From the IMG/VR virus record IMGVR_UViG_3300017716_002841, positions 1 through 64,000 of that record: a stretch of 64,000 nt of DNA, one strand, 5' to 3'. The position numbers and the translations under genes were made by a program. Shown here piece after piece: positions 882-18,069 of this stretch. Each line of letters begins with the position of its first letter. Within the stretch, counting starts at the first letter, position 1. Below the pieces are notes generated by a model, which was not told the origin of the DNA, did no database searches, and saw nothing but the letters and a program-made list of their open reading frames with translations. This DNA is from a virus.

Positions 882-1238
882 ATGAGAGTAACTTTAATTG
901 AGTATGATAGCGGACGTATACGTTATATCTCTGCCGACATTTATATCTTAAAGCCGGACCCTAACCGTAAACACAAGTATATAGCTTGTGATAAGCGTAA
1001 CTATGCGTGGATTGATAACTATACACATATAAAGAAGCTAACGGATACTGTGTATAGAAATAATTCCGGTTATTATTTTCTAACAGAAGAGCATCCTTTC
1101 TTTAACGCTCCGCTTATTAATAGATCTGCTGTTAAGAATAAACTAGATGATAACTTTTTAATATCACACCTACTTGAAGGTATTAGATATCATGTTAAGA
1201 AATCTATATTAGAAGCTTCAGCACACTATAATAAATAG
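882..1238 (+). CDS. MRY/PETHP-family paralogue 1
   Basis: MRVTLI start; LTEEHPFFN motif; TATAAATA at 868-875. Confidence 0.75.
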   Translation: MRVTLIEYDSGRIRYISADIYILKPDPNRKHKYIACDKRNYAWIDNYTHIKKLTDTVYRNNSGYYFLTEEHPFFNAPLINRSAVKNKLDDNFLISHLLEGIRYHVKKSILEASAHYNK

Positions 1239-1475
1239 TGTTATGGCTGTTATGATTATTAATTATCTTATATATGCGATGATAGCTCTATCGCTAATAC
1301 CTGCAATTTTAATTTTTATAGCAGATATTATTAAATATAGAGATGATGACTGATGTTAGATTAGAAACATTGCTAGTTGTTATAATAAGTTGCTTACTCG
1401 CTTTTATCTTAAGCTTTAAGATTAAAAGAATGAAATAACTCCTTGTTATTAATAGACAGTACTGTATAATAAGAC

Positions 1476-1673
1476 ATGGATAATAAAGGCGCATTACAAC
1501 TTGAACTCATGTCTGTTAAAAAGAAGATCAAATTGCTAATGAATTTTAGAAATTATGGAGATGTTCTCGGCAAATCTAAGGAAGATGATAAAAGAGACTT
1601 AGCTGCTCTTGTTACAAAGCAAAAAGAACTCATCGGAAGAATTAAAAAGAAAGTCGAGGATTACGATAAATAA
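1476..1673 (+). CDS. hypothetical basic protein
   Basis: TATAAT 5 nt before ATG. Confidence 0.65.
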   Translation: MDNKGALQLELMSVKKKIKLLMNFRNYGDVLGKSKEDDKRDLAALVTKQKELIGRIKKKVEDYDK

Positions 1674-1679
1674 TCATAC

Positions 1680-2030
1680 ATGCGAGTAAACTTTGTACAG
1701 CTACATTTTGCCGAAGAACAGCGTAGCTACCGCTATAAGGATATTTTAAGGCATTCCAATAGCTCTATTGAGGGACCTGAAGCTCTAGAGGACGGTTACT
1801 ACGGTTGGAAAAAAGAAAAAGACTTTGCATGGTTTGATAATGGTGATAATGATTATGTAATTGCTTTTTACGAGAACCATCCGTTCTTTAATTGTATGAT
1901 CTTACGTTATGCTGATAATTTATTATATGATGCTGGTGGGTATGCGTCTTATTCACCTGCTAGTGAGGTAGTAGAACCCTGGTTTAAAAAGGTTCTTACT
2001 AATTACAGGAGACGTCAAAAGAGAAAGTAA
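1680..2030 (+). CDS. MRY/PETHP-family paralogue 2
   Basis: MRVNFV start; FYENHPFFN motif; TAAATA 1667-1672. Confidence 0.75.
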   Translation: MRVNFVQLHFAEEQRSYRYKDILRHSNSSIEGPEALEDGYYGWKKEKDFAWFDNGDNDYVIAFYENHPFFNCMILRYADNLLYDAGGYASYSPASEVVEPWFKKVLTNYRRRQKRK

Positions 2031-2045
2031 CTACTAAATATTAAC

Positions 2046-2387
2046 ATGAATCGAATTAACTATGTTACTTTACATTTGAAACGAACAGAAGACCAGTTTG
2101 AAGTTGATAGTATTGATATTGATAAAGACCGCTCTGAAGAGGATAATACACCCTTTAGTGAATTGTCAAATACATCAAAAGATAGTACATTTAAATACTC
2201 TGCATTTGAAACGAGATTCGGTACGATGGTAGAAATAGGTCTCAGCGAAAGATGTCCTATGTATAATTTTTCCCTTGTATGGGATGAATACAGTGAACGT
2301 GGACTTACTAATGCTGAAACTTCTGATGCTATAGCTGATTTATTCATTAGCTATTTATTTTCGCAGGGTCTCGATAGCATCGAGTAA
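2046..2387 (+). CDS. MRY/PETHP-family paralogue 3 (divergent)
   Basis: MNRINYV start; LSERCPMYNF motif variant; TAAATA 2035-2040. Confidence 0.65.
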   Translation: MNRINYVTLHLKRTEDQFEVDSIDIDKDRSEEDNTPFSELSNTSKDSTFKYSAFETRFGTMVEIGLSERCPMYNFSLVWDEYSERGLTNAETSDAIADLFISYLFSQGLDSIE

Positions 2388-2422
2388 GTTGAACAGTAAG
2401 GGAACTTCGATATAATCATGGT

Positions 2423-2593
2423 ATGGGACACCGAAATTATATCACGCTTGTCGACGAAATTGTTCGTAATGCTCGTAAGGAAGTAGATTGCTTTGCTGAT
2501 ACTAAAGAAGAGGTAGAGAGTCTCTGCGAGTATCTTGAACGCAGCATCCAAGAGCTCTGCAAGAATGTTAAAGATGGCTTCACGGAACTCTGA
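2423..2593 (+). CDS. hypothetical early protein (56 aa), not in ORF track
   Basis: After motif 2401; MGHRNYITLVDEIVRNARKE...GFTEL. Confidence 0.6.
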   Translation: MGHRNYITLVDEIVRNARKEVDCFADTKEEVESLCEYLERSIQELCKNVKDGFTEL

Positions 2594-2607
2594 TATCATA
2601 GACATAT

Positions 2608-2853
2608 ATGGAAGTAGAATTTGATCGCGTTGAGGATGGTATGATTCAATACAAATGCACCGATACAAGCGGTAGGGTATATGGTGTTGCAGATACTATT
2701 CAAGAAGGAATGATTATGGATACAGTCGTCATTGATATGGATACATATGATGAAGTAGAGGATAGTGAATTATTTAAACGCATTGTAACAGCACGAGCGA
2801 TTTACCTCAACGATAGTTACGAAGCTCTTGAAGCAATGAAGGAACTCTATTAA
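2608..2853 (+). CDS. hypothetical acidic early protein
   Basis: After motif 2584. Confidence 0.7.
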   Translation: MEVEFDRVEDGMIQYKCTDTSGRVYGVADTIQEGMIMDTVVIDMDTYDEVEDSELFKRIVTARAIYLNDSYEALEAMKELY

Positions 2854-2862
2854 AATAATAGT

Positions 2863-3261
2863 ATGGCAACAAGAAGTACAATTAGTCTAAAAACAGAAAG
2901 CGGTTATAGTACAATTTACTGTCACTGGGATGGATATCCTTCTCATACTGGTAGGTTGCTGAAAGAGCATTATGATACACAAGAAAAAGCAGAAGAGTTA
3001 ATCAAGCTCGGATCTCTTAGCTACCTTAGAAAGTTCGTCAAACCAGGTGATGGAGTGTCTCATACTTTCGATGAACCCGCTACCGATGTAACTGTTGCGT
3101 ATTATCGTGATCGTAAGGAGGGTGCAGTTCCACATATTAGCGGATACGAAGATATTAATAGTGTCTATCAAGATGGTGAAGATTACAATTATGTATTTGA
3201 AGATGGTAAATGGTGGCTTGTTACAAAGGATTATCTTTATTGTTTAAATAATAATTTTTAG
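2863..3261 (+). CDS. conserved phage protein (YCHWDGYP family)
   Basis: MATRSTI...IYCHWDGYPS..G..L..HY, a motif widespread in phage early proteins. Confidence 0.8.
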   Translation: MATRSTISLKTESGYSTIYCHWDGYPSHTGRLLKEHYDTQEKAEELIKLGSLSYLRKFVKPGDGVSHTFDEPATDVTVAYYRDRKEGAVPHISGYEDINSVYQDGEDYNYVFEDGKWWLVTKDYLYCLNNNF

Positions 3262-3339
3262 CTTGAGCCCTTTCGAAAAGTTAAACCTTTCGCATCAACG
3301 GCTGAATAAAGTTTAAAGGAACACTGATATAATAATAGT

Positions 3340-3645
3340 ATGCAAGACAACGACGAACTCTTCGACAATTATATTCAACAAGAATTCAACGGATACTTTC
3401 GCTTGGAAGGAACTGAAGGTGTACGCAACCTAGAAAAACTCTGCGAGGGTCTTGGCTATCGCGATGGGCAATTCATCGGGCAGCATTATATATTAAACTT
3501 CCTTGCTGATAATCCAGGAGCGATTGAGAAGCTCTTTGAATTCATTCAAGAGGGTGTTAGCAATCCATACAATACAGAATGGGCTGAAGCTCTCGACCTT
3601 GAGAGCTACGCACACGAGGAAGAAGACGAAACTACGGAACACTAA
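3340..3645 (+). CDS. hypothetical early protein
   Basis: After motif 3318; FLADNPGAIE motif; acidic tail. Confidence 0.75.
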   Translation: MQDNDELFDNYIQQEFNGYFRLEGTEGVRNLEKLCEGLGYRDGQFIGQHYILNFLADNPGAIEKLFEFIQEGVSNPYNTEWAEALDLESYAHEEEDETTEH

Positions 3646-3659
3646 TATAATTAAGAGTA

Positions 3660-3875
3660 ATGAAGAATCTGAATAGTTACGTTGAGAAGGTCTGGGCAGA
3701 GACAACGATTGAAGGTAAGCTCTCTGCATTCACAGAACTAGTAAACAACTCTCACGCAAAGAAAGAAAAAAAGGCGTTAACGCTGCGTCAAGCAGCGCGA
3801 TGCTCTATGCAGAAGCTCGATAGCCTGGCTGTAAATTACTCGATGGCAGGTGAAGGGTTAAAAGTATTAAGCTGA
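3660..3875 (+). CDS. hypothetical early protein
   Basis: After motif 3636. Confidence 0.7.
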   Translation: MKNLNSYVEKVWAETTIEGKLSAFTELVNNSHAKKEKKALTLRQAARCSMQKLDSLAVNYSMAGEGLKVLS

Positions 3876-3962
3876 TATCTAAAAAACACCTTGATAAAAC
3901 AAGGGAACAATTCTATAATAATAGAGAAGACGGTAACGTCAACAACAAACAAACATAATAAT

Positions 3963-4184
3963 ATGAAGAAGACAAATGAAAGCTGGAGCCAATACCTCAA
4001 CAACAAAAGTGTCCGTCCTAAGACGTTCAACGTCACCATGCGTCGTAATAGCCGTGGTGAGTTCATTGTAGTAGGCGGTCAGTCGCTAATGGAAGCAAAG
4101 GATGGTTACAATAGTGAGTGGGTTAAGGTTAATAGCCGCTCACTTGTGAAGGCAATTACCGAATCCGGTATCGTTGCACTGTAA
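3963..4184 (+). CDS. hypothetical early protein with A/C-rich leader
   Basis: Motif 3904, unstructured leader, ATG 3963, followed by a terminator. Confidence 0.7.
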   Translation: MKKTNESWSQYLNNKSVRPKTFNVTMRRNSRGEFIVVGGQSLMEAKDGYNSEWVKVNSRSLVKAITESGIVAL

Positions 4185-4198
4185 TATAAACTAGCATA

Positions 4199-4234
4199 AA
4201 CCCTACTGCGTGTAATGCGCAGTAGGGTTATTTG
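4199..4234 (+). terminator. intrinsic terminator
   Basis: 12-bp stem aaccctactgcg/cgcagtagggtt followed by T-rich tail. Confidence 0.8.
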
Positions 4235-4255
4235 TTTATAAATATAAATACTCTC

Positions 4256-4414
4256 ATGGAAAAACAACACAACATTTACGATACGTATCTTGAGCTCCAA
4301 ACAAAACGTATCGATAAGACAATCACAGATGAAGAGAAAGAAATTTTGCTAAATATATGCACTTTATTTTTAAATGACCTGCTTAGTGAGAGGACCTCGT
4401 CTGAGGAAGTTTAA
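4256..4414 (+). CDS. hypothetical protein (late-type promoter)
   Basis: TATAAATA 4243-4250, ATG 4256. Confidence 0.6.
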   Translation: MEKQHNIYDTYLELQTKRIDKTITDEEKEILLNICTLFLNDLLSERTSSEEV

Positions 4415-4437
4415 CGGAACACTGATATAATAATGGT

Positions 4438-4752
4438 ATGAAGACGTTATATATTATTAAATGCCAGTCTAAAGAGTGGTACGGGTGTTGTGATAATATC
4501 GGTGATCCTGCACATGGTCGCTACAAGATGAAAGGTGGACAAGACTTTGTCATCGAAGCAGATGATCAGCAAATGGATGACGAAGAGGATAAGATCTTCG
4601 CAAACTTTAACGAGAAGTACGACAAAGTCGGTCGCTTCTACCGTTATGAAGCAAAATCGATCGACTGGTACAGTGAACCGGTTGTGGCAAAGTTTGTCGA
4701 TGGTGAAATTATCATCCCCTTTACCGACTCTCTCGACGGAACTTCCGTATAA
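4438..4752 (+). CDS. hypothetical early protein
   Basis: After motif 4416; YKMKGG motif. Confidence 0.75.
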   Translation: MKTLYIIKCQSKEWYGCCDNIGDPAHGRYKMKGGQDFVIEADDQQMDDEEDKIFANFNEKYDKVGRFYRYEAKSIDWYSEPVVAKFVDGEIIIPFTDSLDGTSV

Positions 4753-4758
4753 TTAGAC

Positions 4759-4995
4759 ATGGAGAATAATATGATAGCAATTGGACCTATTGAAATTAAA
4801 CAACGCAACGGCGATTACTTCTATGTGGAAGTTTTTCGTGAAGGTGATAATCTTATTACTGGAACGTTTGCTAATGCATGCTTCCTTCAGGATGAATGGA
4901 CTGTTAGTATTTCTGAATGCGGATCTCTACAAGAGGCTTTAGAATCCTTATACGAAATTCTTGAGGAAGTAGCACACGAAGAAATTGCAGCATAA
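4759..4995 (+). CDS. hypothetical early protein
   Basis: After motif 4738. Confidence 0.7.
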   Translation: MENNMIAIGPIEIKQRNGDYFYVEVFREGDNLITGTFANACFLQDEWTVSISECGSLQEALESLYEILEEVAHEEIAA

Positions 4996-5000
4996 AAATT

Positions 5001-5195
5001 ATGAAAAATATTACTAAATGGATACAGGGATTTGTAGCAGGTGTTAGAACAACTCATCCCTACATTAGAGAGGTTCAAGAGGAGTGGCAATCACGTGTAC
5101 TAAACGATACAGAGAGCTATACAAGCTTTTGGGCATGGCAAAAAGGTTACAGTGCAGCTCACAGTCTTTGTGAGACGTTTGGAAGGGAACACTAA
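5001..5195 (+). CDS. hypothetical protein
   Basis: ORF in co-oriented run; ends inside the next motif (..GREH*). Confidence 0.65.
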   Translation: MKNITKWIQGFVAGVRTTHPYIREVQEEWQSRVLNDTESYTSFWAWQKGYSAAHSLCETFGREH

Positions 5196-5207
5196 TACAA
5201 TAATAAT

Positions 5208-5438
5208 ATGGAATACAATACTACATCCCCGCTGCTAGATCTCGCAATGAAATTTAAGACAGAACAAGCGTTTGATACAGGTTACACAGCACTTAAAGGT
5301 AATGCCTTTTCGTTCGATAATTACAATACAGAGAAGACACTCAGGTTCTTTACGAGTGAGGTACGTGATAACGCAGTACTACATCTTAAATCATTACTTG
5401 AGGAAGGTACTGACTTTAGTCTTGCTGACTTTATCTGA
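5208..5438 (+). CDS. hypothetical early protein
   Basis: After motif 5186. Confidence 0.7.
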   Translation: MEYNTTSPLLDLAMKFKTEQAFDTGYTALKGNAFSFDNYNTEKTLRFFTSEVRDNAVLHLKSLLEEGTDFSLADFI

Positions 5439-5641
5439 TGAAGACTTATCTCTATTGGGAGTATACGGAGCCTTATCCTGAGCATCCAACAGAGATGACT
5501 GTGGAGGACATTCTAAAGGTCTATTGGGAATACTTTAAGAAGCGAATGGATGCAAAGTTTGGACCTGAATATTATCTGACTACAGAAGAATGTTGTATCG
5601 AGGATTGGGCCGTAGTTAACTGGGCGTGGCTAAAGGAATGA
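5438..5641 (+). CDS. hypothetical Trp-rich protein
   Basis: TGATG coupling to upstream gene; CIEDWAVVNWAW C-terminus. Confidence 0.7.
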   Translation: MKTYLYWEYTEPYPEHPTEMTVEDILKVYWEYFKKRMDAKFGPEYYLTTEECCIEDWAVVNWAWLKE

Positions 5642-5661
5642 GTACGCTATAAATATACTAT

Positions 5662-6000
5662 GTGAGATACACTCTATACACAAAACCATCACATAGCTCT
5701 CATAAAGGAGAATGGGCAACGTTTCCTAATGCTTCGTTGCAATATGATGAACAACAAAACGCAGTAGTTAATCAGTCTGGTACTCCTTATGATATTGATA
5801 AGTCTCTAGATAATGGTATACTTATCGGCAAAGGTCGTAGCGGCGATAAGATCGCAGCAGTACCTGAGACACATCCTGCATTCAATATGATATTCTTTCA
5901 TAAACTGTTGTATGATTATGGCTTAGGAAGCAGAATGGCACGTCGTGCTTATCTTTTGAATTTATTAACTATAACCTTAAATAAGTTAACAAACATATGA
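5662..6000 (+). CDS. MRY/PETHP-family paralogue 4
   Basis: (V/M)RYTLY start; VPETHPAFN; TATAAATA 5648-5655. Confidence 0.75.
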   Translation: MRYTLYTKPSHSSHKGEWATFPNASLQYDEQQNAVVNQSGTPYDIDKSLDNGILIGKGRSGDKIAAVPETHPAFNMIFFHKLLYDYGLGSRMARRAYLLNLLTITLNKLTNI

Positions 6001-6356
6001 GATATAGTTACTTAGAAATATTTGTAGAAGATATTGCTACCGCCGCGGACCTCCGTCACGATACCTATAATTATAATAAGGATTCTTGGGATCCTGATTG
6101 GCATGATACTAAAGAGGGTCTTAGCTTTTATTTCAACGATCAAGACGAACGACTCTTAATGTCTGGTTCTATAAGAATACCTGAAACGCACCCCTTCTTT
6201 AACTTTGGGCTTTTAGAGAAGCAACAATACGGTAGAAGAGCAGGCTTTGACCTTAAGCTTTATCAGCCAGTAGAAGAATATGTACGTGTGCGATTAGCTA
6301 AAGCTGGTGTACCGATGACAGTAGACGAAGCGGGTGGAGACGACGAGAATCAATAG
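5997..6356 (+). CDS. MRY/PETHP-family paralogue 5
   Basis: MRYSYL; IPETHPFFN. Confidence 0.8.
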   Translation: MRYSYLEIFVEDIATAADLRHDTYNYNKDSWDPDWHDTKEGLSFYFNDQDERLLMSGSIRIPETHPFFNFGLLEKQQYGRRAGFDLKLYQPVEEYVRVRLAKAGVPMTVDEAGGDDENQ

Positions 6357-6407
6357 TATACAAGCGAGAGAATGAAATAATCTAACGGAACACTGATATA
6401 ATAAAGT

Positions 6408-6566
6408 ATGGCCACTAAGTTAGATGAAATGATGGAACGTGTATGCATGCTTGAAGACCTTTTCGAGTCAGCGGTTGCAGAGGATGATCGCTGGACTGCC
6501 AATAAGGCTCTACTGGAGTTGGATGAGATTAACAAACAGTTGGACGAGCTTGAAAGGGAACACTGA
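6408..6566 (+). CDS. small coiled-coil early protein (52 aa), not in ORF track
   Basis: After motif 6387; MATKLDEMMERV...LEREH. Confidence 0.65.
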   Translation: MATKLDEMMERVCMLEDLFESAVAEDDRWTANKALLELDEINKQLDELEREH

Positions 6567-6577
6567 TAATATCAGTT

Positions 6578-6871
6578 ATGAGCCTTGAGAAAGCAATTCA
6601 AAATAAGAAAGAATATCGCCAACCTTATCGCGGCTCGAAAGCGTTTGATTGCTCTTGCCGCAATCATGGCAGCTGCGGTTACTGCGAAAGCAATCGCACA
6701 CTCTTTGATAAGAAAGCACGGCTGCGCGTTGAAGGTCAAGTGGATGAATGGTTTGGTTACTGGAACCTTCCAGATCCTCATGATGCGAGCAGCGATGCAT
6801 ATGACGAGCGTCTAAAAGAAATTGGTATTGATCCTTGGGACTTTGAGACGCGTAAAGAATTAGACGTATAG
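6578..6871 (+). CDS. conserved phage Cys/His (CRNHGSC) protein
   Basis: DCSCRNHGSCGYCESNR putative Zn-binding motif. Confidence 0.75.
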   Translation: MSLEKAIQNKKEYRQPYRGSKAFDCSCRNHGSCGYCESNRTLFDKKARLRVEGQVDEWFGYWNLPDPHDASSDAYDERLKEIGIDPWDFETRKELDV

Positions 6872-6891
6872 GAACACTGATATAATAAGGT

Positions 6892-7194
6892 ATGAAACCT
6901 GAACAACAAAGAATCGCCATCGCGGAAGCGTGTGGTTGGGTTAAAGAAGTGGGAGTCACCGGAATTCAAAGGTGGAGAAACAACAGTGGTGAATTATACG
7001 AATACATTCCCGACTACCTCAACGACCTCAACGCGATGGCAGCAGCCGAGTCCATCATCATCAAGGCTGGGGCGCAAACCATTCGGCTTTATGAGGACGC
7101 ACTCCAAAGGTTTGTTGCTAACATCGTATTTGCCACCGCCGCCCAACGCGCCGAAGCCTTTTTGAAAACACTGAACTTATGGAAGGAACACTGA
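6892..7194 (+). CDS. phage ABA-sandwich-like protein
   Basis: IAIAEACGW...PDYLNDLNAM...ATAAQRAEAFL pattern. Confidence 0.65.
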   Translation: MKPEQQRIAIAEACGWVKEVGVTGIQRWRNNSGELYEYIPDYLNDLNAMAAAESIIIKAGAQTIRLYEDALQRFVANIVFATAAQRAEAFLKTLNLWKEH

Positions 7195-7432: not shown

Positions 7433-7795
7433 ATGAGGTACGTTTACATATCAGCTCCCAATGAGAAAAAATATCTACTCTTCCATAGAGCACTTGCAAG
7501 TGAGGAGAATGGTAAGGTGTCATTAGATTATTATAAATCAGGTTTGAAGCGTCATTTTACTGCTACTTTTAAGAGTAAGGATGGTATATTGCTCAATATC
7601 AATCGGTTTAATGTTAATATAGTAGATTACAATATGTTCATACCAGAGACGAATCCTTATTTTAATATGAATGTACTAGGTGACGCATTTCCATATCTAG
7701 ATAAGTATCAACCAGAGGTGAGGGAAGCAGTCAAGAATAATGTGTATACAACTTTTAAAAGGGTATTGAGAGAGTACAAGGTGTCTTCTGAGTAG
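7433..7795 (+). CDS. MRY/PETHP-family paralogue 6
   Basis: MRYVYI; IPETNPYFN; TAAATA 7414-7419. Confidence 0.8.
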   Translation: MRYVYISAPNEKKYLLFHRALASEENGKVSLDYYKSGLKRHFTATFKSKDGILLNINRFNVNIVDYNMFIPETNPYFNMNVLGDAFPYLDKYQPEVREAVKNNVYTTFKRVLREYKVSSE

Positions 7796-7817: not shown

Positions 7818-8075
7818 ATGCAGAAGCAGTATATTGATATTCGGAGCGGTACCAAGCGTTACTTTAAAGACAAAGAGATGACGATTCTCCATCGCTTGGA
7901 TGGTCCTGCAGTTCAATACGCTAGCGGATATAAAGAGTGGAATGTTGATGGTAAACTTCATCGCACTGATGGACCAGCAATTGAATATCCTGACGAAGGG
8001 AAGGCCTGGTATATAAATGGGGTGTTTATTTTTAGTATCTCTAAAGATGGTACGCTACGGACTAGGATGCAATAA
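7818..8075 (+). CDS. HRxDGPA-repeat protein 1
   Basis: Two LHRxDGPA(V/I) repeats; TAAATA 7807-7812. Confidence 0.8.
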   Translation: MQKQYIDIRSGTKRYFKDKEMTILHRLDGPAVQYASGYKEWNVDGKLHRTDGPAIEYPDEGKAWYINGVFIFSISKDGTLRTRMQ

Positions 8076-8076
8076 T

Positions 8077-8364
8077 ATGGAACGCTATACAGATACAATT
8101 TCAGGAGAAGAGCTTTATATACATATTGGTCCAGGAGGTAGTAAGAATTACTACAAAGATAAAGAACTCGACATCCCTCACCGCGTAGATGGGCCAGCAT
8201 TTGAAAGTGATGATAGGGGTAAAATGTGGTATGTTAATGGTAACCTTCATCGGCTTGATGGACCAGCTGTTATATCTGCCATAGATAGTAAAAAGTGGTA
8301 TGTTAATGGTACCTTTATTCTTGAGGTAAATCATAAAGATAAGATAATCAAAAGGATGAGTTAA
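8077..8364 (+). CDS. HRxDGPA-repeat protein 2
   Basis: HRVDGPA and HRLDGPA repeats; start at internal ATG 8077. Confidence 0.8.
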   Translation: MERYTDTISGEELYIHIGPGGSKNYYKDKELDIPHRVDGPAFESDDRGKMWYVNGNLHRLDGPAVISAIDSKKWYVNGTFILEVNHKDKIIKRMS

Positions 8365-8381: not shown

Positions 8382-8642
8382 ATGGAAGAACAGTATATTG
8401 AAATTAACGAAAAAGGTTATAAGAACTACTTTAAGGATAAAAAGAAAACAATTCTTCACCGTGAAGATGGTCCAGCAGTTGAACATGCTGATGGATATCG
8501 AGCATGGTGGCTAAATGATAAACTTCACCGTCTAGATGGACCAGCTGTTGAATATTCTAGTGGAGGTAAAGGGTGGTTTGTTAATGATGTGTTTATTTTT
8601 GGGGTAGATAGTAGCGGTCAGTTGATCGAGAGGATGGAATAA
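8382..8642 (+). CDS. HRxDGPA-repeat protein 3
   Basis: HREDGPA and HRLDGPA repeats. Confidence 0.8.
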   Translation: MEEQYIEINEKGYKNYFKDKKKTILHREDGPAVEHADGYRAWWLNDKLHRLDGPAVEYSSGGKGWFVNDVFIFGVDSSGQLIERME

Positions 8643-9062: not shown

Positions 9063-9419
9063 ATGAGATATAGTATTCTATTGGTTGATGTAGCAGTTAA
9101 TGGTGTTGATATAATAATTACGGCTGGTGCGTGGACAACTGCAGTAGGTAATGGAGATGATATAAAGGTGAATAAAGGTAATCTTAACAACTATTCATTA
9201 CCGGTAGTGAGTGAAGACGGGGCAAGAATGTATTACTTAAAAACAGATCCGAATAAGCACTATCTGTTACTCATACCAGAGACACATCAATACTATAATA
9301 GTTGTATATTAATGTATAACTTCGATCAAGATGGCGATCAAGATGGCTATGAAGGTAGCCAAAGAGTAGTGGAGATGATGAAGAAAATGTTCAACAAAAT
9401 AAGAAGAGAAATATACTAA
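9063..9419 (+). CDS. MRY/PETHP-family paralogue 7
   Basis: MRYSIL; IPETHQYYN; TAAATA 9051-9056. Confidence 0.8.
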   Translation: MRYSILLVDVAVNGVDIIITAGAWTTAVGNGDDIKVNKGNLNNYSLPVVSEDGARMYYLKTDPNKHYLLLIPETHQYYNSCILMYNFDQDGDQDGYEGSQRVVEMMKKMFNKIRREIY

Positions 9420-9424
9420 CGCAT

Positions 9425-9844
9425 ATGAGATATTCAACATACACATTTACTCATACCGGAGAGCTTATTATGGCTCCGGTAATGTGCTTCACTCTCGATG
9501 CTAAGCAACATGAGTTTATACCGCACGCCCAAAATGAGTACATTAATGATAAATGGAGGAAAACATTTCATCTTGGGCCGCATCATGATGGGGAAGTAGA
9601 GGTCACAAAAGCATCAGATAATATATACAAGGGTATACTGGATCTCGACTATGAAAAGACTTACTGTATTATTATACCCGAAACGCACCCTATGTTTAAT
9701 GCCTATCTACTTTTAAATTATAATATGAATGATGAGTTGTTTGAAACAATACAAGCACTAATGAGCCATCCGAATGCACAGTCACCGATTCAGCCGATTA
9801 GAAGGGTATTAGAGGTAATCAATAAACAGATAAATAAATACTGA
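9425..9844 (+). CDS. MRY/PETHP-family paralogue 8
   Basis: MRYSTY; IPETHPMFN. Confidence 0.8.
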   Translation: MRYSTYTFTHTGELIMAPVMCFTLDAKQHEFIPHAQNEYINDKWRKTFHLGPHHDGEVEVTKASDNIYKGILDLDYEKTYCIIIPETHPMFNAYLLLNYNMNDELFETIQALMSHPNAQSPIQPIRRVLEVINKQINKY

Positions 9845-10044
9845 ACGGGCAATAAAATGTTCTAAAAATACAAGAAAGTGTATAAAAAAGAAGCAAAAGC
9901 GATGGGAACACGAGTATAATAAGAAGAGAGAGATACTAACGCATGGCTAATAAATGAAGTTGAATAATATCAAAAGTTATTTAATATCAATGTGTTATAT
10001 ATAGCCTTGATAGTGAATGACTAATCGGAAATACCTGAATACAC

Positions 10045-11562: not shown

Positions 11563-12180
11563 TTAAACTGCTCCTCTTTTAGCTGCATGCGCTTTACGCA
11601 TGCTCTCACTTATATTTTTACGTGAGACGTCGGTATGTCTCCTACCTGGCTTACCTTTACGATGACTTACTCTACCTTTTGCTGCTCTACTTAGCTTTTG
11701 TTTTGTCTCGTCGGTATGTCTCCTACCTGGCTTACCTTTACGATGACTTACTCTACTCAGCTTTTGTTTTGTCTCTTCTGTAAGTTTATTACCTGGCTTA
11801 CCTTTACGGCTCGTACCTTTTTGAATCATGCGCGATTTACGAAGTATCTTTGCTTCTTCTGTAAGTTTATTACCTTTCTGTAATAAACTTAATTTTCTTT
11901 TTAACCACCCGAAACGCTTGTTGTTATTTCGACATCCATCACCTTTATCTACACACATCATATTAGCAGCAAAAGCGAGCTTAAGATTATTAGGCTGCAT
12001 CTTAACTAACAATTGATGGCAAATAAAATGCTCTTCAGGTGTTAAAATAGCAATATTTTTTTCATCATCTGAACCACTCATACATCTTGGAATGATATGA
12101 TGACGTTCGGAATAACCCTCAATCAGGGGCCTGGTTTTAGCACGGATGATAATACTCTTGTAAATTTTTTTATAGTTCAT
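11563..12180 (-). CDS. HNH homing endonuclease with NUMOD3-like repeats
   Basis: MNYKKIY...ERHHIIPRCMSGSDDEKNIAILTPEEHFICHQLL; C-terminal (H/L)T(E/D)ETKQKLS repeats; the only substantial minus-strand gene in the accessory region. Confidence 0.9.
   Translation of the reverse strand: MNYKKIYKSIIIRAKTRPLIEGYSERHHIIPRCMSGSDDEKNIAILTPEEHFICHQLLVKMQPNNLKLAFAANMMCVDKGDGCRNNNKRFGWLKRKLSLLQKGNKLTEEAKILRKSRMIQKGTSRKGKPGNKLTEETKQKLSRVSHRKGKPGRRHTDETKQKLSRAAKGRVSHRKGKPGRRHTDVSRKNISESMRKAHAAKRGAV
11629..11756. repeat. internal direct repeats encoding NUMOD3 units
   Basis: gtcggtatgtctcctacctggcttacctttacgatgacttactctac occurs at about 11629 and 11710. Confidence 0.85.
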
Positions 12181-12240
12181 TGTTAGCATTAATATTTATT
12201 CAGCATGGTAGCTTTTATTGAATATAGATTAAATAATATT

Positions 12241-12312: not shown

Positions 12313-12318
12313 TAAGAT

Positions 12319-12354
12319 GATAATAGAGGTAGGTTGATCGACAGGATGAAATAA
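12319..12354 (+). pseudogene. 3' remnant of an HRxDGPA-repeat gene
   Basis: Encodes DNRGRLIDRMK*, matching DSSGQLIERME* at 8607-8642. Confidence 0.6.
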
Positions 12355-12362
12355 ATAACCAT

Positions 12363-12695
12363 ATGCAGGAGCAATACATCGAGACAAGCAGATACGGTAC
12401 AAAGAAGTACTTTATTAAAGACAAAGCTAAGACCATTCTTCACCGTGAAGACGGCCCAGCAGTTGAATATGCTAATGGTGAGAGAGCATGGTATGTTGAT
12501 GGTAAACTTCATCGTCTTGATGGCCCAGCAATTGAACATGCTGATGGAAGTAAATCGTGGTTAGTTGATGGTAAGTACCACCGTGAAGATGGTCCAGCAG
12601 TTGAATATGTCAATGGAAGTAAAGCGTGGTATGTTAATGATGTATTTATTTTTGAGGTAGATGGTAGTGGTCAGTTGGCCTTGAGGATGCAATAA
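12363..12695 (+). CDS. HRxDGPA-repeat protein 4 (three repeats)
   Basis: Three HRxDGPA units; TAAATA 12352-12357. Confidence 0.85.
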   Translation: MQEQYIETSRYGTKKYFIKDKAKTILHREDGPAVEYANGERAWYVDGKLHRLDGPAIEHADGSKSWLVDGKYHREDGPAVEYVNGSKAWYVNDVFIFEVDGSGQLALRMQ

Positions 12696-12703
12696 ATAAC
12701 CAT

Positions 12704-12964
12704 ATGCAGGAGCAATATATAACGACATTAAAGAACGGTACAAAGTATTACTTTAAAGACAAAGCAAAGACAATTTTTCATCGTATTGATGGACCAGCAG
12801 TTGAATGGGCTAATGGTGAGAAGGAATGGTATGTTAATGGTAAACGTCATCGGCTTGATGGTCCAGCAACTGAACATGCTGATGGATATCGAGCATGGTT
12901 TGTTAATGGTGTATTTATTTTTGAGGTAGATGGTAGTGGTGAGATGATTATTAGAATGCGGTAA
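12704..12964 (+). CDS. HRxDGPA-repeat protein 5
   Basis: Two units; TAAATA 12693-12698. Confidence 0.85.
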   Translation: MQEQYITTLKNGTKYYFKDKAKTIFHRIDGPAVEWANGEKEWYVNGKRHRLDGPATEHADGYRAWFVNGVFIFEVDGSGEMIIRMR

Positions 12965-12991
12965 AGTGAGGGAACACCGATATAATTAGGT

Positions 12992-13192
12992 ATGACCGAA
13001 ACAATGCACTGTAAACCAATTAAGCTTAACCTCGTCGGCCTTGATGGCAATGCCTATTCACTTATGGGAGCGTTCCAACGAGCCGCTCGTAAACAAGGGT
13101 GTACCCCAGAAGAGATCAAAGCCGTCTTAGATGATTGTATGAGTGGCAACTATGATCACCTCCTTCAGACTCTAGTGAAGCACACTCGCTAA
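12992..13192 (+). CDS. conserved phage protein (GxDGNA family)
   Basis: LVGLDGNAYSLMG...SGNYDHLL. Confidence 0.8.
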   Translation: MTETMHCKPIKLNLVGLDGNAYSLMGAFQRAARKQGCTPEEIKAVLDDCMSGNYDHLLQTLVKHTR

Positions 13193-13214
13193 GGGAACAC
13201 CAATATAATTAGGT

Positions 13215-13388
13215 ATGGCAAATAAGACATTTATGACGTTCGCAGAAATTAAAGCTGAGTACAAAGTTGAGAAGTGGTTCCATACCCCCTGGCACTTTAG
13301 CGCTTCCGGGCAATATGTCTGCTTCCTCAGCGGTAATAAAGAATGTTACAAGACTGAAGAAGGTTATGTCGTTGGAGAGCGTCGCTAA
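13215..13388 (+). CDS. small early protein (57 aa), not in ORF track
   Basis: After motif 13194. Confidence 0.6.
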   Translation: MANKTFMTFAEIKAEYKVEKWFHTPWHFSASGQYVCFLSGNKECYKTEEGYVVGERR

Positions 13389-13411
13389 GGGAACTCAGAT
13401 ATAATAATAGT

Positions 13412-13648
13412 ATGCTGAACAACACTATGAAAACCAAAATCTTTGACACTCTCATCTTGATCTCGATAATCATCCTCTTCGCCCTCGCTCATGTCTCACC
13501 ACTGGTCGGCATCATCATGATGTCACTAGCAGGTAATATGGTGTATCAAATCCTAGGAGCGATCTTACAAGTAGTATCTATTGCTGGACTTGTATACATT
13601 CATTACTGGAACGGCACATTCCGATCCGATAAGAAAGACCTCGACTAA
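13412..13648 (+). CDS. small membrane protein (2 TM)
   Basis: Two hydrophobic stretches; after motif 13390. Confidence 0.7.
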   Translation: MLNNTMKTKIFDTLILISIIILFALAHVSPLVGIIMMSLAGNMVYQILGAILQVVSIAGLVYIHYWNGTFRSDKKDLD

Positions 13649-13666
13649 CACTAATATAATAATAAT

Positions 13667-13831
13667 ATGAAAGAGCTCATCGCATCCATCACCGCTATCA
13701 TCCTTATCATCATCGTCTGGATCGGGTCATCCGCCATCGAAGCTTCTACCTACACTCGTCTGACCGGTAAGAAGGTAACCGTCGTCGACGCTATGTTTAT
13801 CGACCTCAAAGTCATTGATGGAGTTAAGTAA
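13667..13831 (+). CDS. small membrane protein (54 aa), not in ORF track
   Basis: MKELIASITAIILIIIVWIG...; degenerate motif upstream. Confidence 0.65.
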   Translation: MKELIASITAIILIIIVWIGSSAIEASTYTRLTGKKVTVVDAMFIDLKVIDGVK

Positions 13832-13853
13832 GGAACACTAATATAATAATAGT

Positions 13854-13970
13854 ATGCTGAACAAGAAACCTAAGACATGGGACGTATTCATCGCGTGGGT
13901 ATTGATGCTTACGTTCTGCGCAGCGTGCTGGTGGTGGATCGTTACCATGGTGATGGAGTGCATCAAATAA
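13854..13970 (+). CDS. small membrane protein (38 aa), not in ORF track
   Basis: After motif 13832; VFIAWVLMLTFCAACWWWIV. Confidence 0.6.
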   Translation: MLNKKPKTWDVFIAWVLMLTFCAACWWWIVTMVMECIK

Positions 13971-13991
13971 AGGAACTCTAGTATAATAATT

Positions 13992-14177
13992 GTGATGACA
14001 AAATACAACACCGACTTATTAGTTGCACTGGAAGAATTATATGCTGTCCTAGACAGGAAGACGTCCAATGGGCTAGCGGTCAACCAGGTGCTACCAAAGG
14101 AGATTGCTGACATGTTCTACGCTCCCGCTCTCAGAGCACGCATTGCCATTAAGCAAGCTTTGGAGAAGGAACTCTAG
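13992..14177 (+). CDS. hypothetical early protein
   Basis: After motif 13972. Confidence 0.65.
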   Translation: MMTKYNTDLLVALEELYAVLDRKTSNGLAVNQVLPKEIADMFYAPALRARIAIKQALEKEL

Positions 14178-14189
14178 TATAATAATTGT

Positions 14190-14393
14190 ATGACCACCGA
14201 CAATATCAACTACGCTTACATCACCGGCGCTTATGAAGGCATGCTAGGCACTCTCGCATACTCACTCGTTAGTAAAGGTATCGTACCTAATGATCCTGAC
14301 ACCTACGATAAGCTCAAAGAGTATATCAGCAGTGAGATCGATCGCATCAAACAAGTAGAGCGTGATTACTCCCTCCCACTCGATCAACTATAA
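14190..14393 (+). CDS. hypothetical early protein
   Basis: After motif 14168. Confidence 0.7.
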   Translation: MTTDNINYAYITGAYEGMLGTLAYSLVSKGIVPNDPDTYDKLKEYISSEIDRIKQVERDYSLPLDQL

Positions 14394-14419
14394 GCGCCAC
14401 CGCTCGACTAAATACTAAC

Positions 14420-14863
14420 ATGCGTAAGACAGATCAAGAAAAAATGTGGGAGGTCTTTGTTGAGTCCTCAAATGGTGGAGTCATCTCAACCGGAGGTGCT
14501 CTTAAGGCTGGTGGTGGATCGTCCGCTCCTAAGACATCTAACGATGATGAGGATGCTGAGGATGTTGATGGTGACCCATACGAGGATGAAGAGGGTAAGG
14601 ATAAGCTTCAAGACATCCTTACTAAGTGCCACAATGGTGACATCTCTATTGATGAGGCTCGTAACCTTATTGATAAACTGTCAAAGAGTGGTGAGGAGGA
14701 TGAGGAGAAGAATGTTAAGCGCTTCACAGCACAGAAGGCTACTGACAAGATGAGAGGCCAGTTCACTAAGAATAAGAGCGCTGCTAACGTTAGTGTTAAA
14801 GCTCTTGATAGAGGTGTCCAAGGTGTTAAGCGTAACACTAGTGCACCTCAACAAGGTATGTAA
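14420..14863 (+). CDS. late protein, possible internal head protein
   Basis: TAAATA 14409-14414; low-complexity acidic then basic sequence. Confidence 0.65.
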   Translation: MRKTDQEKMWEVFVESSNGGVISTGGALKAGGGSSAPKTSNDDEDAEDVDGDPYEDEEGKDKLQDILTKCHNGDISIDEARNLIDKLSKSGEEDEEKNVKRFTAQKATDKMRGQFTKNKSAANVSVKALDRGVQGVKRNTSAPQQGM

Positions 14864-14896
14864 CTCCTTAGGAGCTTTAACGCTACCCTATTTTAA

Positions 14897-14936
14897 AAAG
14901 AGTCCTAAACAACCTCAGTGTTGTTTAGGACTCTTT
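14897..14936 (+). terminator. intrinsic (possibly bidirectional) terminator
   Basis: 17-bp inverted repeat aaagagtcctaaacaac/gttgtttaggactcttt. Confidence 0.8.
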
Positions 14937-15237
14937 GTGTCTCCTAAGAGCTGCGTTCACTCTCCATCGATGCCAGAGCGCCGTGTGTGTCCGCTATGAG
15001 TGTATGCTAAGCTCCTACGCTATATAGAGACCGTCAGCGCTCCGAATTGTATTATATGAGCTCGCAGCAAAACCGGGTCTAGAAGCCATGTCCTAGAATT
15101 TTTTTGTCAAAAATCCTCTAACTCTAATGAAGGTTCTCAGAGACTCCAAAAAGGGTTCTCCGAAAATCCGATATCTTTAAAAATTTTTTTTGCGCGAAAT
15201 TCTGAGATTTCTATATAGGGGGTTGTAAATATTACCG

Positions 15238-15906
15238 ATGGTTGATACTCTAGTTATATCCGATATTCATCTTGGTTCCTCTGCGTGTAATAGAGAGAAG
15301 GTACTTGAAGTATTAGATATTCCGTTTACTACTCTCATTATAAATGGTGACTTATTCGACAATCATTCGTTTCATAGATACACCAAGAAGGATTGGAAGA
15401 TACTAACTCGTATTCGAAAGCTATCGAAGACTCACAAAGTTATATTAGTGAGAGGTAATCATGATGGTTGTGCTGAGTTTCTGGCGGCTATTACCGGTAT
15501 GGAGTTTACTAAGTCCTACAGTTTCAAAGTTGGTGAGCGGCAGATGCTCTGCGAGCATGGTGATGAGTATGATCACTGGGTTCAGTCCCGGCCTATAGCT
15601 ACTTTTATCTTTACCGGTCTATATTACTGGTTACAGAAGTTGGATAAGAAGAATATCTTAACACGGAGATTGAAAGCTTGGTCAAAGTCGTGGGTTAGAG
15701 CGAAGGATATTGTGTCTAAGAATTTCTTAGATAAACATGGTAGAGAATATGATGTTGTTATGGCTGGCCATACTCATTACCCGGAAGAGAGATATGATGT
15801 AACTTATAAGTGCTGTTATATTAACTCTGGCTCCTTTTGTGATGAGATGTGCTCATTCATTCAAATTCATTCAGATGGTACAGCTAAACTGACTTATATT
15901 GTCTAA
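15238..15906 (+). CDS. calcineurin-like metallophosphoesterase (LpxH/YbbF-like)
   Basis: ISDIHLG, NGDLFD, GNHD, HGD and GHTH motifs. Confidence 0.85.
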   Translation: MVDTLVISDIHLGSSACNREKVLEVLDIPFTTLIINGDLFDNHSFHRYTKKDWKILTRIRKLSKTHKVILVRGNHDGCAEFLAAITGMEFTKSYSFKVGERQMLCEHGDEYDHWVQSRPIATFIFTGLYYWLQKLDKKNILTRRLKAWSKSWVRAKDIVSKNFLDKHGREYDVVMAGHTHYPEERYDVTYKCCYINSGSFCDEMCSFIQIHSDGTAKLTYIV

Positions 15907-15919
15907 ATATTATAAAGGA

Positions 15920-16267
15920 ATGAGATATAAGACGTATACATATGACACCACATTGGCATTGATTCAATTAGAGGATTATCCTTTCTTTTTAAAGGATGGT
16001 GTATTTGTCTCTCACCATAAAGGTGTAATTGGGTTTCAACAATATAACGGCATTACATCCAAAGCAGATGGTATATATCAAGCGACAAACTTTAATATCT
16101 TTTTTATACCAGAGTCTCACCCTTTCTTTAACATAGATGTTATAACTAACGCTGTGGATGGTTACGGTCAACCTCCTATAACATCTAGAAAGCTTATACA
16201 CAATACATGGGTTAAGTTTACCAAATTAACATATAAGTATATTAAGAAAATATCAAAAGCAATATGA
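15920..16267 (+). CDS. MRY/PETHP-family paralogue 9
   Basis: MRYKTY at internal ATG; IPESHPFFN; TAAATA 15904-15909. Confidence 0.8.
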   Translation: MRYKTYTYDTTLALIQLEDYPFFLKDGVFVSHHKGVIGFQQYNGITSKADGIYQATNFNIFFIPESHPFFNIDVITNAVDGYGQPPITSRKLIHNTWVKFTKLTYKYIKKISKAI

Positions 16268-16575
16268 GATACAAGACAATTATAATAGATGCAGAAGTTT
16301 TATACACAGATTCAAAGTCTTTTTTACGAGGTATATCTGTTGATAATTATCAAAACACTATAAGTTCTAAAAAGCCAGTAGAACGCGGAGAGAGTTCAGA
16401 TGTAGTAACCATACCAGAGACGCACCCATTCTTTAACATAGACATATGTAGTGACACAGTAGATAATCTAATAGATTTTGACGATAGTATATTCTTTAGT
16501 GATAAGTGGGAGAGCTCTGTCGACAATATTATAAAGAAATGGTTTCCGAGTGTTTATAACTTTTACATAAATTAA
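16264..16575 (+). CDS. MRY/PETHP-family paralogue 10
   Basis: MRYKTI; IPETHPFFN. Confidence 0.8.
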   Translation: MRYKTIIIDAEVLYTDSKSFLRGISVDNYQNTISSKKPVERGESSDVVTIPETHPFFNIDICSDTVDNLIDFDDSIFFSDKWESSVDNIIKKWFPSVYNFYIN

Positions 16576-16582
16576 ATCCACA

Positions 16583-16903
16583 ATGAGATATAAAGTATAT
16601 ACCATAGATAATCTAGAGAATACACTAAGAACACTAGACCCTGCAAAGATTTACACATACACTGATGTTCAGCGTATGAATGGTGTTATCGACTTAGAGG
16701 ATGGAATACTTCAACGTAAAGGTCTTGGATTTTATATTATACCTGAAACATACACATACTTCAACTTAGATATACTCAAATCCGCAATACACACAATACC
16801 GACAACAACAGTTAGAATCGGATTTTGGCAACTTATCAAACAAGTAGGCACCTCATTTTATAAATATATAAAATCCATAACACCAAGGGTAGATACTAAA
16901 TAA
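16583..16903 (+). CDS. MRY/PETHP-family paralogue 11
   Basis: MRYKVY; IPETYTYFN. Confidence 0.8.
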   Translation: MRYKVYTIDNLENTLRTLDPAKIYTYTDVQRMNGVIDLEDGILQRKGLGFYIIPETYTYFNLDILKSAIHTIPTTTVRIGFWQLIKQVGTSFYKYIKSITPRVDTK

Positions 16904-16907
16904 GCAT

Positions 16908-17273
16908 ATGCGTTATAAAGTAATTTATTTCTATTTACCTATGACCTATGCAATGATTGGATCTCGTATCTATCACTTTGAAATAGAGTCAGAATCATCT
17001 ATTATTTCTGAACATCCCGGTTCTGTATACTCTGACGATTTCAGAGATTACAACAGAGTGGGTGATACAGATATTTATAGATCTTCTACCACTGACTATC
17101 CCTCTAATTTCTTTGTTAAAATTGTAGAGGAATCTGACCCTGCGTTTAACTTTGATTATGCTTATGAGGTGTGTGATGATGTGGATATGGTTTTATACTT
17201 GGATGAAAAAATATACGTAAACATACTCGTGGAGCAGTTTATAGGTAGTCGTATATTAAGCATGGAACGATAA
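16908..17273 (+). CDS. MRY/PETHP-family paralogue 12
   Basis: MRYKVI; VEESDPAFNFD; TAAATA 16897-16902. Confidence 0.8.
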   Translation: MRYKVIYFYLPMTYAMIGSRIYHFEIESESSIISEHPGSVYSDDFRDYNRVGDTDIYRSSTTDYPSNFFVKIVEESDPAFNFDYAYEVCDDVDMVLYLDEKIYVNILVEQFIGSRILSMER

Positions 17274-17335
17274 GATGTTATCCAGGACCACGAGCGGCAT
17301 GTGGCCCTTCGGGCAATTTGTATAAATAAGATAAG

Positions 17336-17758
17336 ATGAGGTATAAGAAATTCCAAATATCAGGTGCTGTCGAGCTAGATGAAATCGATACACTGTGGAT
17401 AGCAGATGTTGATATCGTCGACGGTAGTATACTTCAGCATGATAGAGTGTGGGAAGAAGATTTAGAAAGTACCGGTCGCTTTAAGGGATTATATGACTAT
17501 CTTAAAGTAGATAAATACCTCTATCAACGTGTAGATAAAGATAGTGATGTTAATGCAGAATACGGTCAAGCGACAACGTATTACTATGTATTACCAGAGA
17601 CTCACCCTAGCTTTAACTTTGATATCATCTACAAAGCTGCACGGTGGGATAAAGATATAGCTTTGTTTACTAATAACGATCGTGAAGATGAAGGTCGTAC
17701 TGTATTACACAGACAGCTTCCGGAATTTGTAAATAGAAACACCTACGAAAACTCATGA
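17336..17758 (+). CDS. MRY/PETHP-family paralogue 13
   Basis: MRYKKF; LPETHPSFNFD; TATAAATA 17321-17328. Confidence 0.8.
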   Translation: MRYKKFQISGAVELDEIDTLWIADVDIVDGSILQHDRVWEEDLESTGRFKGLYDYLKVDKYLYQRVDKDSDVNAEYGQATTYYYVLPETHPSFNFDIIYKAARWDKDIALFTNNDREDEGRTVLHRQLPEFVNRNTYENS

Positions 17759-18069
17759 GATATAAAAGTTTTTATATAGTAGCTGAAATCCTTGATGAGG
17801 AGTTTCATAATGGTTTACCATCACTCAGTTATATCGAAGTAAGTAACGTTACTATATCGAATACACCACCTAAAGTTACAAGTTCAAGGCAAGTAATTAT
17901 GAGAGAGGATCACCCTATATTTAACTTTGATATTTGGGCTGATGATGTTGATTATATTGAAACAGAAGACTTAAGCAACTTTAAAAGTTTTATGGGTTCA
18001 GATGAAGTAAATTATCTCATAGCTAAGTACTTTCCTGATGTATTGCGTTATTTTAAATATCAAATATAA
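17755..18069 (+). CDS. MRY/PETHP-family paralogue 14
   Basis: MRYKSF; MREDHPIFNFD. Confidence 0.8.
   Translation: MRYKSFYIVAEILDEEFHNGLPSLSYIEVSNVTISNTPPKVTSSRQVIMREDHPIFNFDIWADDVDYIETEDLSNFKSFMGSDEVNYLIAKYFPDVLRYFKYQI

Follow-up and report, generated by a model that had tools for sequence, protein, structure and literature searches.

Fourteen small open reading frames (ORFs) that share a single sequence pattern lie on one strand of the stretch of DNA analyzed here, positions 1 to 64,000 of IMG/VR virus record IMGVR_UViG_3300017716_002841 (hereafter the window). CheckV rates the 105-kb contig, of which the window forms the first 64 kb, as ~50% complete, and the phage is an uncultured freshwater phage of the T4 type. 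gp23 is encoded at 43429-44922 on the minus strand, and the contig also carries genes for portal, head-tail adaptor, head-closure and scaffold proteins and for NrdA. A gp21-type prohead protease at 46140-46802 (minus strand) matches phrog_207, head maturation protease, at 1.7e-53, and a homolog of the late sigma factor gp55 lies outside the window (G000 82154-82483; match to T4 gp55 at E 3.1e-10, 37% identity). In gp23 and portal the phage reaches at most ~33% identity to GenBank phages, of which cyanophages are nearest, and near-identical DNA is found almost exclusively in freshwater and lake metagenomes.

An original prediction, made from the letters of the window, had described the 14 ORFs as one paralog family, which it could not assign to a known one. 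All were found at their predicted starts on the plus strand, encoding proteins of 103-140 amino acids (aa), and the alignment contains the features ascribed to them: an N-terminal M-R-(Y/V), an alternating hydrophobic N-terminal strand and a central (I/V/L)PE(T/S)HPxFN motif. They are listed here with the names used below, the distance in nucleotides (nt) from any upstream TAAATA to the start codon, and the E value of recovery by a leave-one-out profile.

882-1238, plus strand: w882, 118 aa, beginning MRV, motif LTEEHPFFN; TATAAATA at 868-875; E 2.8e-7.
1680-2030, plus strand: w1680, 116 aa, motif FYENHPFFN; TAAATA 13 nt 5' of the ATG, overlapping the preceding stop codon; E 1.1e-5.
2046-2387, plus strand: w2046, a probable divergent member, 113 aa, beginning MNR, motif LSERCPMYNF; TAAATA at 11 nt; E 0.42.
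5662-6000, plus strand: w5662, 112 aa, GTG start; TATAAATA at 5648-5655; E 1.3e-5.
5997-6356, plus strand: w5997, 119 aa, start overlapping the w5662 stop (ATGA); TAAATA at 19 nt; E 1.8e-6; ortholog L001:3435 at 55% identity.
7433-7795, plus strand: w7433, 120 aa, motif IPETNPYFN; TAAATA at 19 nt; E 2.3e-6; ortholog L010:2414.
9063-9419, plus strand: w9063, 118 aa, motif IPETHQYYN; TAAATA at 12 nt; E 1.2e-6.
9425-9844, plus strand: w9425, 139 aa, without a promoter box of its own; E 4.6e-9.
15920-16267, plus strand: w15920, first of a run of six, 115 aa; TAAATA at 16 nt; E 5.7e-10; preceded by a calcineurin-like phosphoesterase gene (15238-15906).
16264-16575, plus strand: w16264, 103 aa, start overlapping the preceding stop (ATGA); E 2.5e-11; modeled with AlphaFold2.
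16583-16903, plus strand: w16583, 106 aa, motif IPETYTYFN; without its own box in this genome; E 5.3e-7.
16908-17273, plus strand: w16908, 121 aa, motif VEESDPAFN; TAAATA at 11 nt; E 0.0016.
17336-17758, plus strand: w17336, 140 aa; TATAAATA at 17321-17328; E 4.3e-9.
17755-18069, plus strand: w17755, 104 aa, motif MREDHPIFN; E 4.8e-6.

In the 14-sequence alignment the invariant positions are M1, R2 and the E and N of the motif. Leave-one-out hidden Markov models (Z=1000) recovered 12 members at E values between 2.5e-11 and 1.3e-5, w16908 at 0.0016 and w2046 at 0.42. A 77-sequence profile built without w2046 and its ortholog returned w2046 at E 0.002-0.005, the sole non-training segment, of 517 in the window, with E <0.6. 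On these scores the family comprises 13 firm members and one probable, very divergent member, w2046, which in the tree sits on a long branch together with its ortholog P0009. No further copies were found in the 64-kb window or in the remaining 41 kb of the contig, and the family accounts for ~5 kb of the phage's DNA. The consensus of 126 distinct full-length members begins M-R-Y-K and continues with alternating hydrophobic residues; its central motif reads hydrophobic-hydrophobic-(I/V/L)-P-E-(T/S/D)-H-P-x-F-N-hydrophobic-D.

The family is real, as predicted, and it is new and lineage-specific, with matches absent from every library searched. It had left room for a profile match to a characterized family in Pfam or PHROG, and none came to light: no member found anything below E 0.01 in Pfam, PHROGs, PADLOC or NCBIfam. 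The family profile reached a best E of 0.48 against PDB sequences; Foldseek returned nothing at E<=0.001 from the PDB and BFVD, and in an exhaustive VIA-align comparison with 48,161 chains no neighbor emerged, Z reaching 2.5 at best. The T4 genome has no family member, and the 50,697 records of GenBank phages gave no match by megablast or by tblastn of two members. In the ESM Atlas, unnamed clusters were found at 0.89, and the nearest named clusters were tail-fiber domains at 0.76-0.79, which is chance level. An exhaustive profile search of 1.84 billion representative proteins gave 54 matches, ~45 of them small (86-152 aa) with the same pattern. One metagenomic protein of 246 aa, P0015, consists of two tandem family domains with the motifs ILPEESPYFN and FVPETHPIFN, the first lacking the MRY start, and shows that the family domain tolerates fusion; no other longer or fused forms were seen, which is weak evidence. 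P0013, P0014, P0018 and P0020, long proteins with Calx-beta, HYR or PKD repeats, were judged spurious multi-stretch matches and set aside. A word-indexed search of 5.8 billion clusters returned only entries named 'hypothetical protein', from a few contigs.

The family recurs on 15 uncultured viral or lake-metagenome contigs, mostly in same-strand arrays of 2-12 genes; the 126 distinct full-length members come from this pool. Three IMG/VR contigs hold 11, 5 and 6 members, and 11 of 12 lake-metagenome loci hold 1-12 each (most 2-12), always on a single strand. Over the stretch shared with the relative L001 both phages carry 11 members, but membership and placement differ. In a quick tree, which is based on few columns and leaves its deep forks unresolved, every paralog of the window clusters with sequences of other contigs or metagenomes, most of these groupings at Shimodaira-Hasegawa-like approximate likelihood ratio test (SH-aLRT) values of 80-100, and no two window copies are sisters; w16908, for example, belongs to a well supported orthogroup of seven. 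Comparison of the window with its closest relative, L002, gave ratios of nonsynonymous to synonymous substitution (dN/dS) of 0.21-0.38 for family genes and 0.02-0.26 for neighboring genes, values that denote purifying selection, somewhat relaxed.

The prediction had also placed a hypervariable core between the N-terminal strand and the motif, and this did not survive comparison of orthologs, which diverge evenly along their length. Over seven clear ortholog pairs, conservation does not fall in the insert relative to the C-terminal region, with identities of 92% in the insert against 74% in the C-terminal region for w16908, 78% against 64% for w17336 and 59% against 74% for w15920. The term overstates the pattern because the C-terminal part is equally divergent. 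No pair of template and variable repeats, as in diversity-generating retroelements, occurs among the copies, whose only DNA repeats are a motif-coding 32-mer and a segment of promoter plus start. The diversity of the family is old paralogy, with no active diversifying mechanism, and the family itself is old and restricted to a clade of uncultured freshwater T4-like phages.

Variation between close relatives takes place at the level of the gene, with whole cassettes or 5' halves gained, lost or replaced. L002 has flanks ~92% identical to those of the window and a phosphoesterase 98% identical in protein sequence. Neither w15920 nor w16264 is present in it, w16583 and w16908 are separated by an additional member, and at the position of w17755 there is a different member, at most 45% identical. 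The two-gene indel in L002 joins the upstream region of w15920 straight to the body of the w16583 ortholog; the junction falls inside the common ATGAGATA(T/C)AA start (ATGAGATAYAA), and this ortholog stands directly behind the box that heads w15920 in the window. w9425 is missing from L001. In the window it lies between 27-nt direct repeats at 9398-9424 and 9918-9944 (25 of 27 positions identical; repeat D16), the second of which is found behind an early GGAAC-TATAAT box and runs into a four-codon ORF. Since L001 is without the gene, these repeats look like the footprint of an insertion or deletion. Contigs from other lakes contain two replaced segments, one of which, in a single lake contig, spans 17637-17926 and takes the 5' half of w17755; the alignment picks up again at the codons for EDHPIFNF, themselves one of the copies of the repeated 32-mer. 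The junctions of gain, loss and replacement are thus the gene start ATGAGATAYAA, the motif-coding 32-mer or flanking direct repeats.

That junctions lie in conserved start and motif DNA might be taken to mean that the family is largely dispensable, self-propagating filler, kept because its conserved ends recombine readily and bringing the phage little benefit. The lack of any detectable function would fit such an explanation, as would dN/dS values above those of neighboring genes. We nevertheless think it quite improbable, given that a dN/dS of 0.21-0.38 is clear purifying selection, that individual paralogs have been retained across diverged phages and that the cassettes have neither a linked nuclease nor a linked integrase.

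A known precedent is the shuffling of cassettes in the hyperplastic regions of T4-like genomes via promoter/stem-loop (PeSL) motifs (Comeau, Arbiol and Krisch 2014, PMC4122927). As there, variable genes between core blocks are swapped among close relatives at short conserved boundary sequences. The differences are that here the recombining elements, instead of an early promoter and its terminator stem-loop, are the late box with the first codons of the gene (ATGAGATAYAA) and the motif 32-mer, and that the swapped genes all belong to one family. The family genes are without the early box of a PeSL boundary, only w17336 has a small hairpin ahead of its box, and terminator-like sites are not enriched (5 found, 9.3 expected). 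The family is a clean case of T4-like phages building and reshuffling accessory repertoires via the genes' own first codons and an internal motif rather than via PeSL elements.

The hairpin of w17336 is small and GC-paired (GCCC-TTC-GGGC), is followed by a T-run (~17304-17320) and lies directly before the TATAAATA box; this arrangement is kept in L001, L002, L010 and L012, with changes in the stem. It has the appearance of a terminator-plus-late-promoter composite, reminiscent of PeSL elements.

The upstream regions set the family apart from its neighbors, whose promoter is GGAAC-N5-TATAAT, ending 5-6 nt before the ATG with GGAAC at -21/-22. As predicted, no family gene has this promoter (0 of 14 with GGAAC at -21/-22). 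TAAATA, mostly preceded by A, C or T, stands 11-13 nt before the ATG in seven of the 14 (882, 1680, 2046, 5662, 9063, 16908 and 17336), and the promoter and start of w5662 resemble those of w882 (repeat D12). Three members (9425, 16264 and 16583) have no TAAATA; each directly abuts another member upstream, which is consistent with translational coupling. At TAAATA-headed family genes no Shine-Dalgarno sequence is visible. The claim that each cluster starts with TAAATA holds in so far as 11 of 14 members have a box within 25 nt and the rest directly follow a member, but the spacing is 16-25 nt in four.

Of 222 TAAATA sites across the contig, 28 make up a sharp peak at 11-12 nt from an ATG. Among the genes with TAAATA 11-13 nt before their start are those for the portal, adaptor and prohead protease; examples of genes headed by it in the window are 48441-50249, 47284-48423 and 46140-46805 on the minus strand and 33211-35232 on the plus strand. 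Relatives keep the box at orthologous positions. The upstream motif of the family is, as had been proposed, that of the head genes, at like spacing and in a phage that encodes a gp55 homolog. The location 'inside the early region' applies to eight of the 14, which lie among early GGAAC-TATAAT cassettes, but not to the run of six, which is in a TAAATA-headed block at 14420-18549; the GGAAC cassettes end at ~14.4 kb.

These early-type cassettes, of the form GGAAC-N5-TATAAT-N5/6-ATG, number ~29 on the plus strand of the window between 76 and 14393 (e.g. 3318-3342, 4416-4440 and 6871-6894). Their -10-like hexamer starts 11-12 nt before the ATG, with no -35 or Shine-Dalgarno sequence visible, so that they would likewise give leaderless messenger RNAs (mRNAs). 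Classical sigma-70 promoters with -35 and -10 elements are not enriched (65 found, 59.7 expected).

In T4 the late box is TATAAATA, at -13 to -6, with a variant CTAAATA in Aeh1, and the proteins concerned are gp55, gp33 and gp45; in five T4-like genomes late promoters are found only before orthologs of late genes (PMC1524935). The phage studied here likewise has head genes preceded by this core motif, in which the leading base is A, C or T, and it encodes a gp55 homolog. It differs in the distance of 5-7 nt between the end of the box and the ATG, and in the presence of the box ahead of a novel accessory family. With the spacing of T4, transcription from a box that starts 11 nt from the ATG would begin on the A of AUG, and late, leaderless or near-leaderless expression is the best reading of the upstream sequences.

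It could be argued that TAAATA near the ATG is not a promoter, and that the family is transcribed by read-through from upstream early or middle promoters. Its products would then be host-takeover proteins of the early or middle period, as holds for most novel ORFs of the plastic regions of T4-like phages. Eight of the 14 genes do lie among same-strand early cassettes, the few terminator-like sites (5 against 9.3 expected) would do little to separate the two, TAAATA often overlaps a stop codon, and the restriction of late promoters to late-gene orthologs in the five genomes points the same way (PMC1524935). Set against this are the sharp 11-12 nt spacing of the box, equal to that before head genes, its conservation at orthologous positions, the absence of an early box from all 14 members though ~29 neighbors carry one, and the position of the run of six in a block in which each gene head has TAAATA. 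We consider early or middle expression doubtful.

With 57 sequences, AlphaFold2 gave a model of w16264 with a predicted local distance difference test (pLDDT) score of 74 and a predicted template modeling score of 0.65. It consists of a long hairpin (β1, residues 3-15; β2, 18-34), a third strand (47-51), a well-predicted turn containing the motif, and helices over residues 59-102. Residues 3-15 are modeled as a strand of the sheet, and the first 10 residues have a pLDDT of 87. In the model of w17336 (140 aa; pLDDT 62) the elements follow one another in the same order, and the insert contains additional strands. The proteins are predicted to be small, soluble α/β proteins. The notion of a conserved scaffold with a variable insert finds support of moderate confidence in the secondary structure of the two models, but the insert is not hypervariable.

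The small internal proteins of T4 offer an obvious comparison. The gp21 protease cleaves at L/I-x-E, and internal-protein genes of T-even phages are poorly conserved between phages (PMC9026906). Like these, the family consists of small proteins, late as judged by their upstream motif, with a conserved N terminus and poor conservation between related phages; IPI* is also a small α/β protein, with a role in an arms race, and a gp21-type protease and a scaffold core are present in this phage. Unlike them, the family members are true paralogs with a fold-wide pattern and a central motif, rather than unrelated bodies behind one leader, and there are 14 copies rather than three. Nor do they share an N-terminal L/I-x-E propeptide of ~10 residues or a uniformly basic character. 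Hydrophobic-x-E occurs within the first 20 residues in 36 of 126 members, ending anywhere from position 7 to 16 with no common site. Isoelectric points (pI) in the window range from 4.3 to 9.4, with eight of 14 proteins acidic and one near neutral (pI 6.8), and the median over the copies of the window and of L001-L003 is 5.5.

These comparisons bear on the proposal that the family members are ejected internal proteins of the T4 kind, in which the MRY N terminus would act as a leader for capsid targeting. Once loaded into the prohead, the proteins would be cut by the gp21-type protease at hydrophobic-x-E, then injected along with the DNA to block host nucleases as IPI* does. In its favor are the protease, scaffold and portal encoded by the phage, the late-type upstream motif and a strikingly conserved N terminus, which in one subfamily reads MRYKSFYIVAE, near to the MKTYQEFIAE of T4. 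The central motif is always hydrophobic-x-E, in keeping with the L/I-x-E rule, and T-even internal-protein genes share the poor conservation (PMC9026906). However, the potential sites in the first 20 residues are scattered and present in only 36 of 126, the proteins are not uniformly basic (median pI 5.5), residues 3-15 are modeled as a core β-strand (pLDDT ~87) rather than a detachable tail, and a cut at the central E would divide the predicted domain in two. Appealing as the analogy with T4 is, we regard this proposal as unlikely.

We put at about an even chance the explanation that the family is a late-made, diversified repertoire of accessory binding proteins for varied partners, and place far less confidence in any single role for it. 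Such a repertoire best fits the observations because the genes are under purifying selection, paralogs are retained across phages, charge and length are heterogeneous outside a fixed core, gene content turns over at the level of the strain, and the promoter is of late type. The spread of pI from 4.3 to 9.4 fits different partners, and an anti-defense or host-binding role would be consistent with cassette turnover between close relatives. The mechanism we envisage is as follows. T4-type late promoters read by gp55, with an (A/C/T)TAAATA core ending 5-7 nt before the ATG, would transcribe the family; the cluster heads would in consequence be made late, from mRNAs with no leader or nearly none, and translation of the members close behind them would be coupled. 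The remaining steps are the weakest. A fixed core would be formed by the PE(T/S)HPxFN turn together with the invariant MRY strand at the N terminus and the last strand, and each copy would have its own hairpin or insert and C-terminal helices. On this view the array would amount to a set of binding modules, one partner per copy, which might act at the end of infection, or travel in the virion to the next cell, as accessory factors in counter-defense or host interaction.

Several points weigh against this binder repertoire. The four boxes at 16-25 nt (5997, 7433, 15920 and 17755) have a non-canonical spacing, and the frequent overlap of TAAATA with the preceding stop codon means that it might in part be an AT-rich initiation context rather than a promoter. 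TAAATA also heads non-structural genes, namely the phosphoesterase at 15238 and an HNH endonuclease, as well as genes of a second small family (HRxDGPA), and therefore marks a late class rather than virion proteins. The w17336 model is of low confidence, and its likeness to that of w16264 is in the order of elements, without superposition. A dN/dS below 1 carries no arms-race signature, and no partner, structural analog or fused domain was found that would speak for a set of binders.

A role within the virion is a further alternative, the proteins then being accessory, assembly or decoration factors, such as chaperones or adaptors for the phage's other paralogous late proteins, rather than directed at the host. 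The late-type motif would accord with this, as would the existence of another paralogous late family (36469-40622), and the nearest named ESM Atlas clusters are tail-fiber domains, yet at the chance-level 0.76-0.79. Copy numbers do not match (5 genes at 36469-40622 against 14), gene content that varies between genomes ~92% identical in their flanks would be unusual for assembly factors, and Foldseek and VIA-align found no structural similarity to any virion protein. We hold such a role to be very unlikely.

The repertoire reading can be carried further, to single-domain binders on one unseen fold, heritable and swappable as cassettes, which would be translated from late mRNAs that lack leaders and be carried in the virion or released with it; every copy would neutralize a different host defense or surface factor in the cell infected next. 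Such a set would be the phage equivalent of a multigene 'innate antibody' family, in a freshwater T4-like clade without a cultured member, and as a complete picture we think it a rather unlikely one. Though absent from Pfam, PHROGs, NCBIfam and PADLOC and lacking any structural neighbor, the family recurs in arrays across a whole clade of lake phages. If late leaderless expression and a role in counter-defense or delivery prove true, the internal-protein idea of T4 would be extended to a large paralogous set, and the conserved ends would be handles for finding such repertoires in metagenomes.

Some further features of the contig were noted. The genes at 36469-40622 (plus strand) are five adjoining paralogs of 264-307 aa, four of which have a C-terminal NLYK(S/T/A)T(L/I)GxGLxLP tail; the three copies tested had no match in Pfam. 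From 59668 to 64000 on the minus strand, and on to contig position 70130, runs a long series of genes of ~190-410 aa, whose N termini, judged by eye, resemble glycosyltransferases, a radical-SAM/QueE-like enzyme and a P-loop kinase. They look like genes for glycosyltransferases and other enzymes rather than for fibers; the idea of the 14-member family as fiber chaperones was dropped, the 36469-40622 family having only five copies.

The second small paralogous family mentioned above has MORN-like HR(x)DGPA...W(Y/F)xNG repeats and lies behind TAAATA boxes within the early cassette region. Its members have weak library matches only (DUF6745, phrog_32732):

7818-8075: HR(x)DGPA protein.
8074-8364: HR(x)DGPA protein.
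8382-8642: HR(x)DGPA protein.
12363-12695: HR(x)DGPA protein.
12704-12964: HR(x)DGPA protein.

An HNH homing-endonuclease gene (11563-12189, minus strand; phrog_655 at 3e-54) lies on the opposite strand in the early region and contains internal coding repeats of 66-81 nt (repeat D8, 11608-11822).

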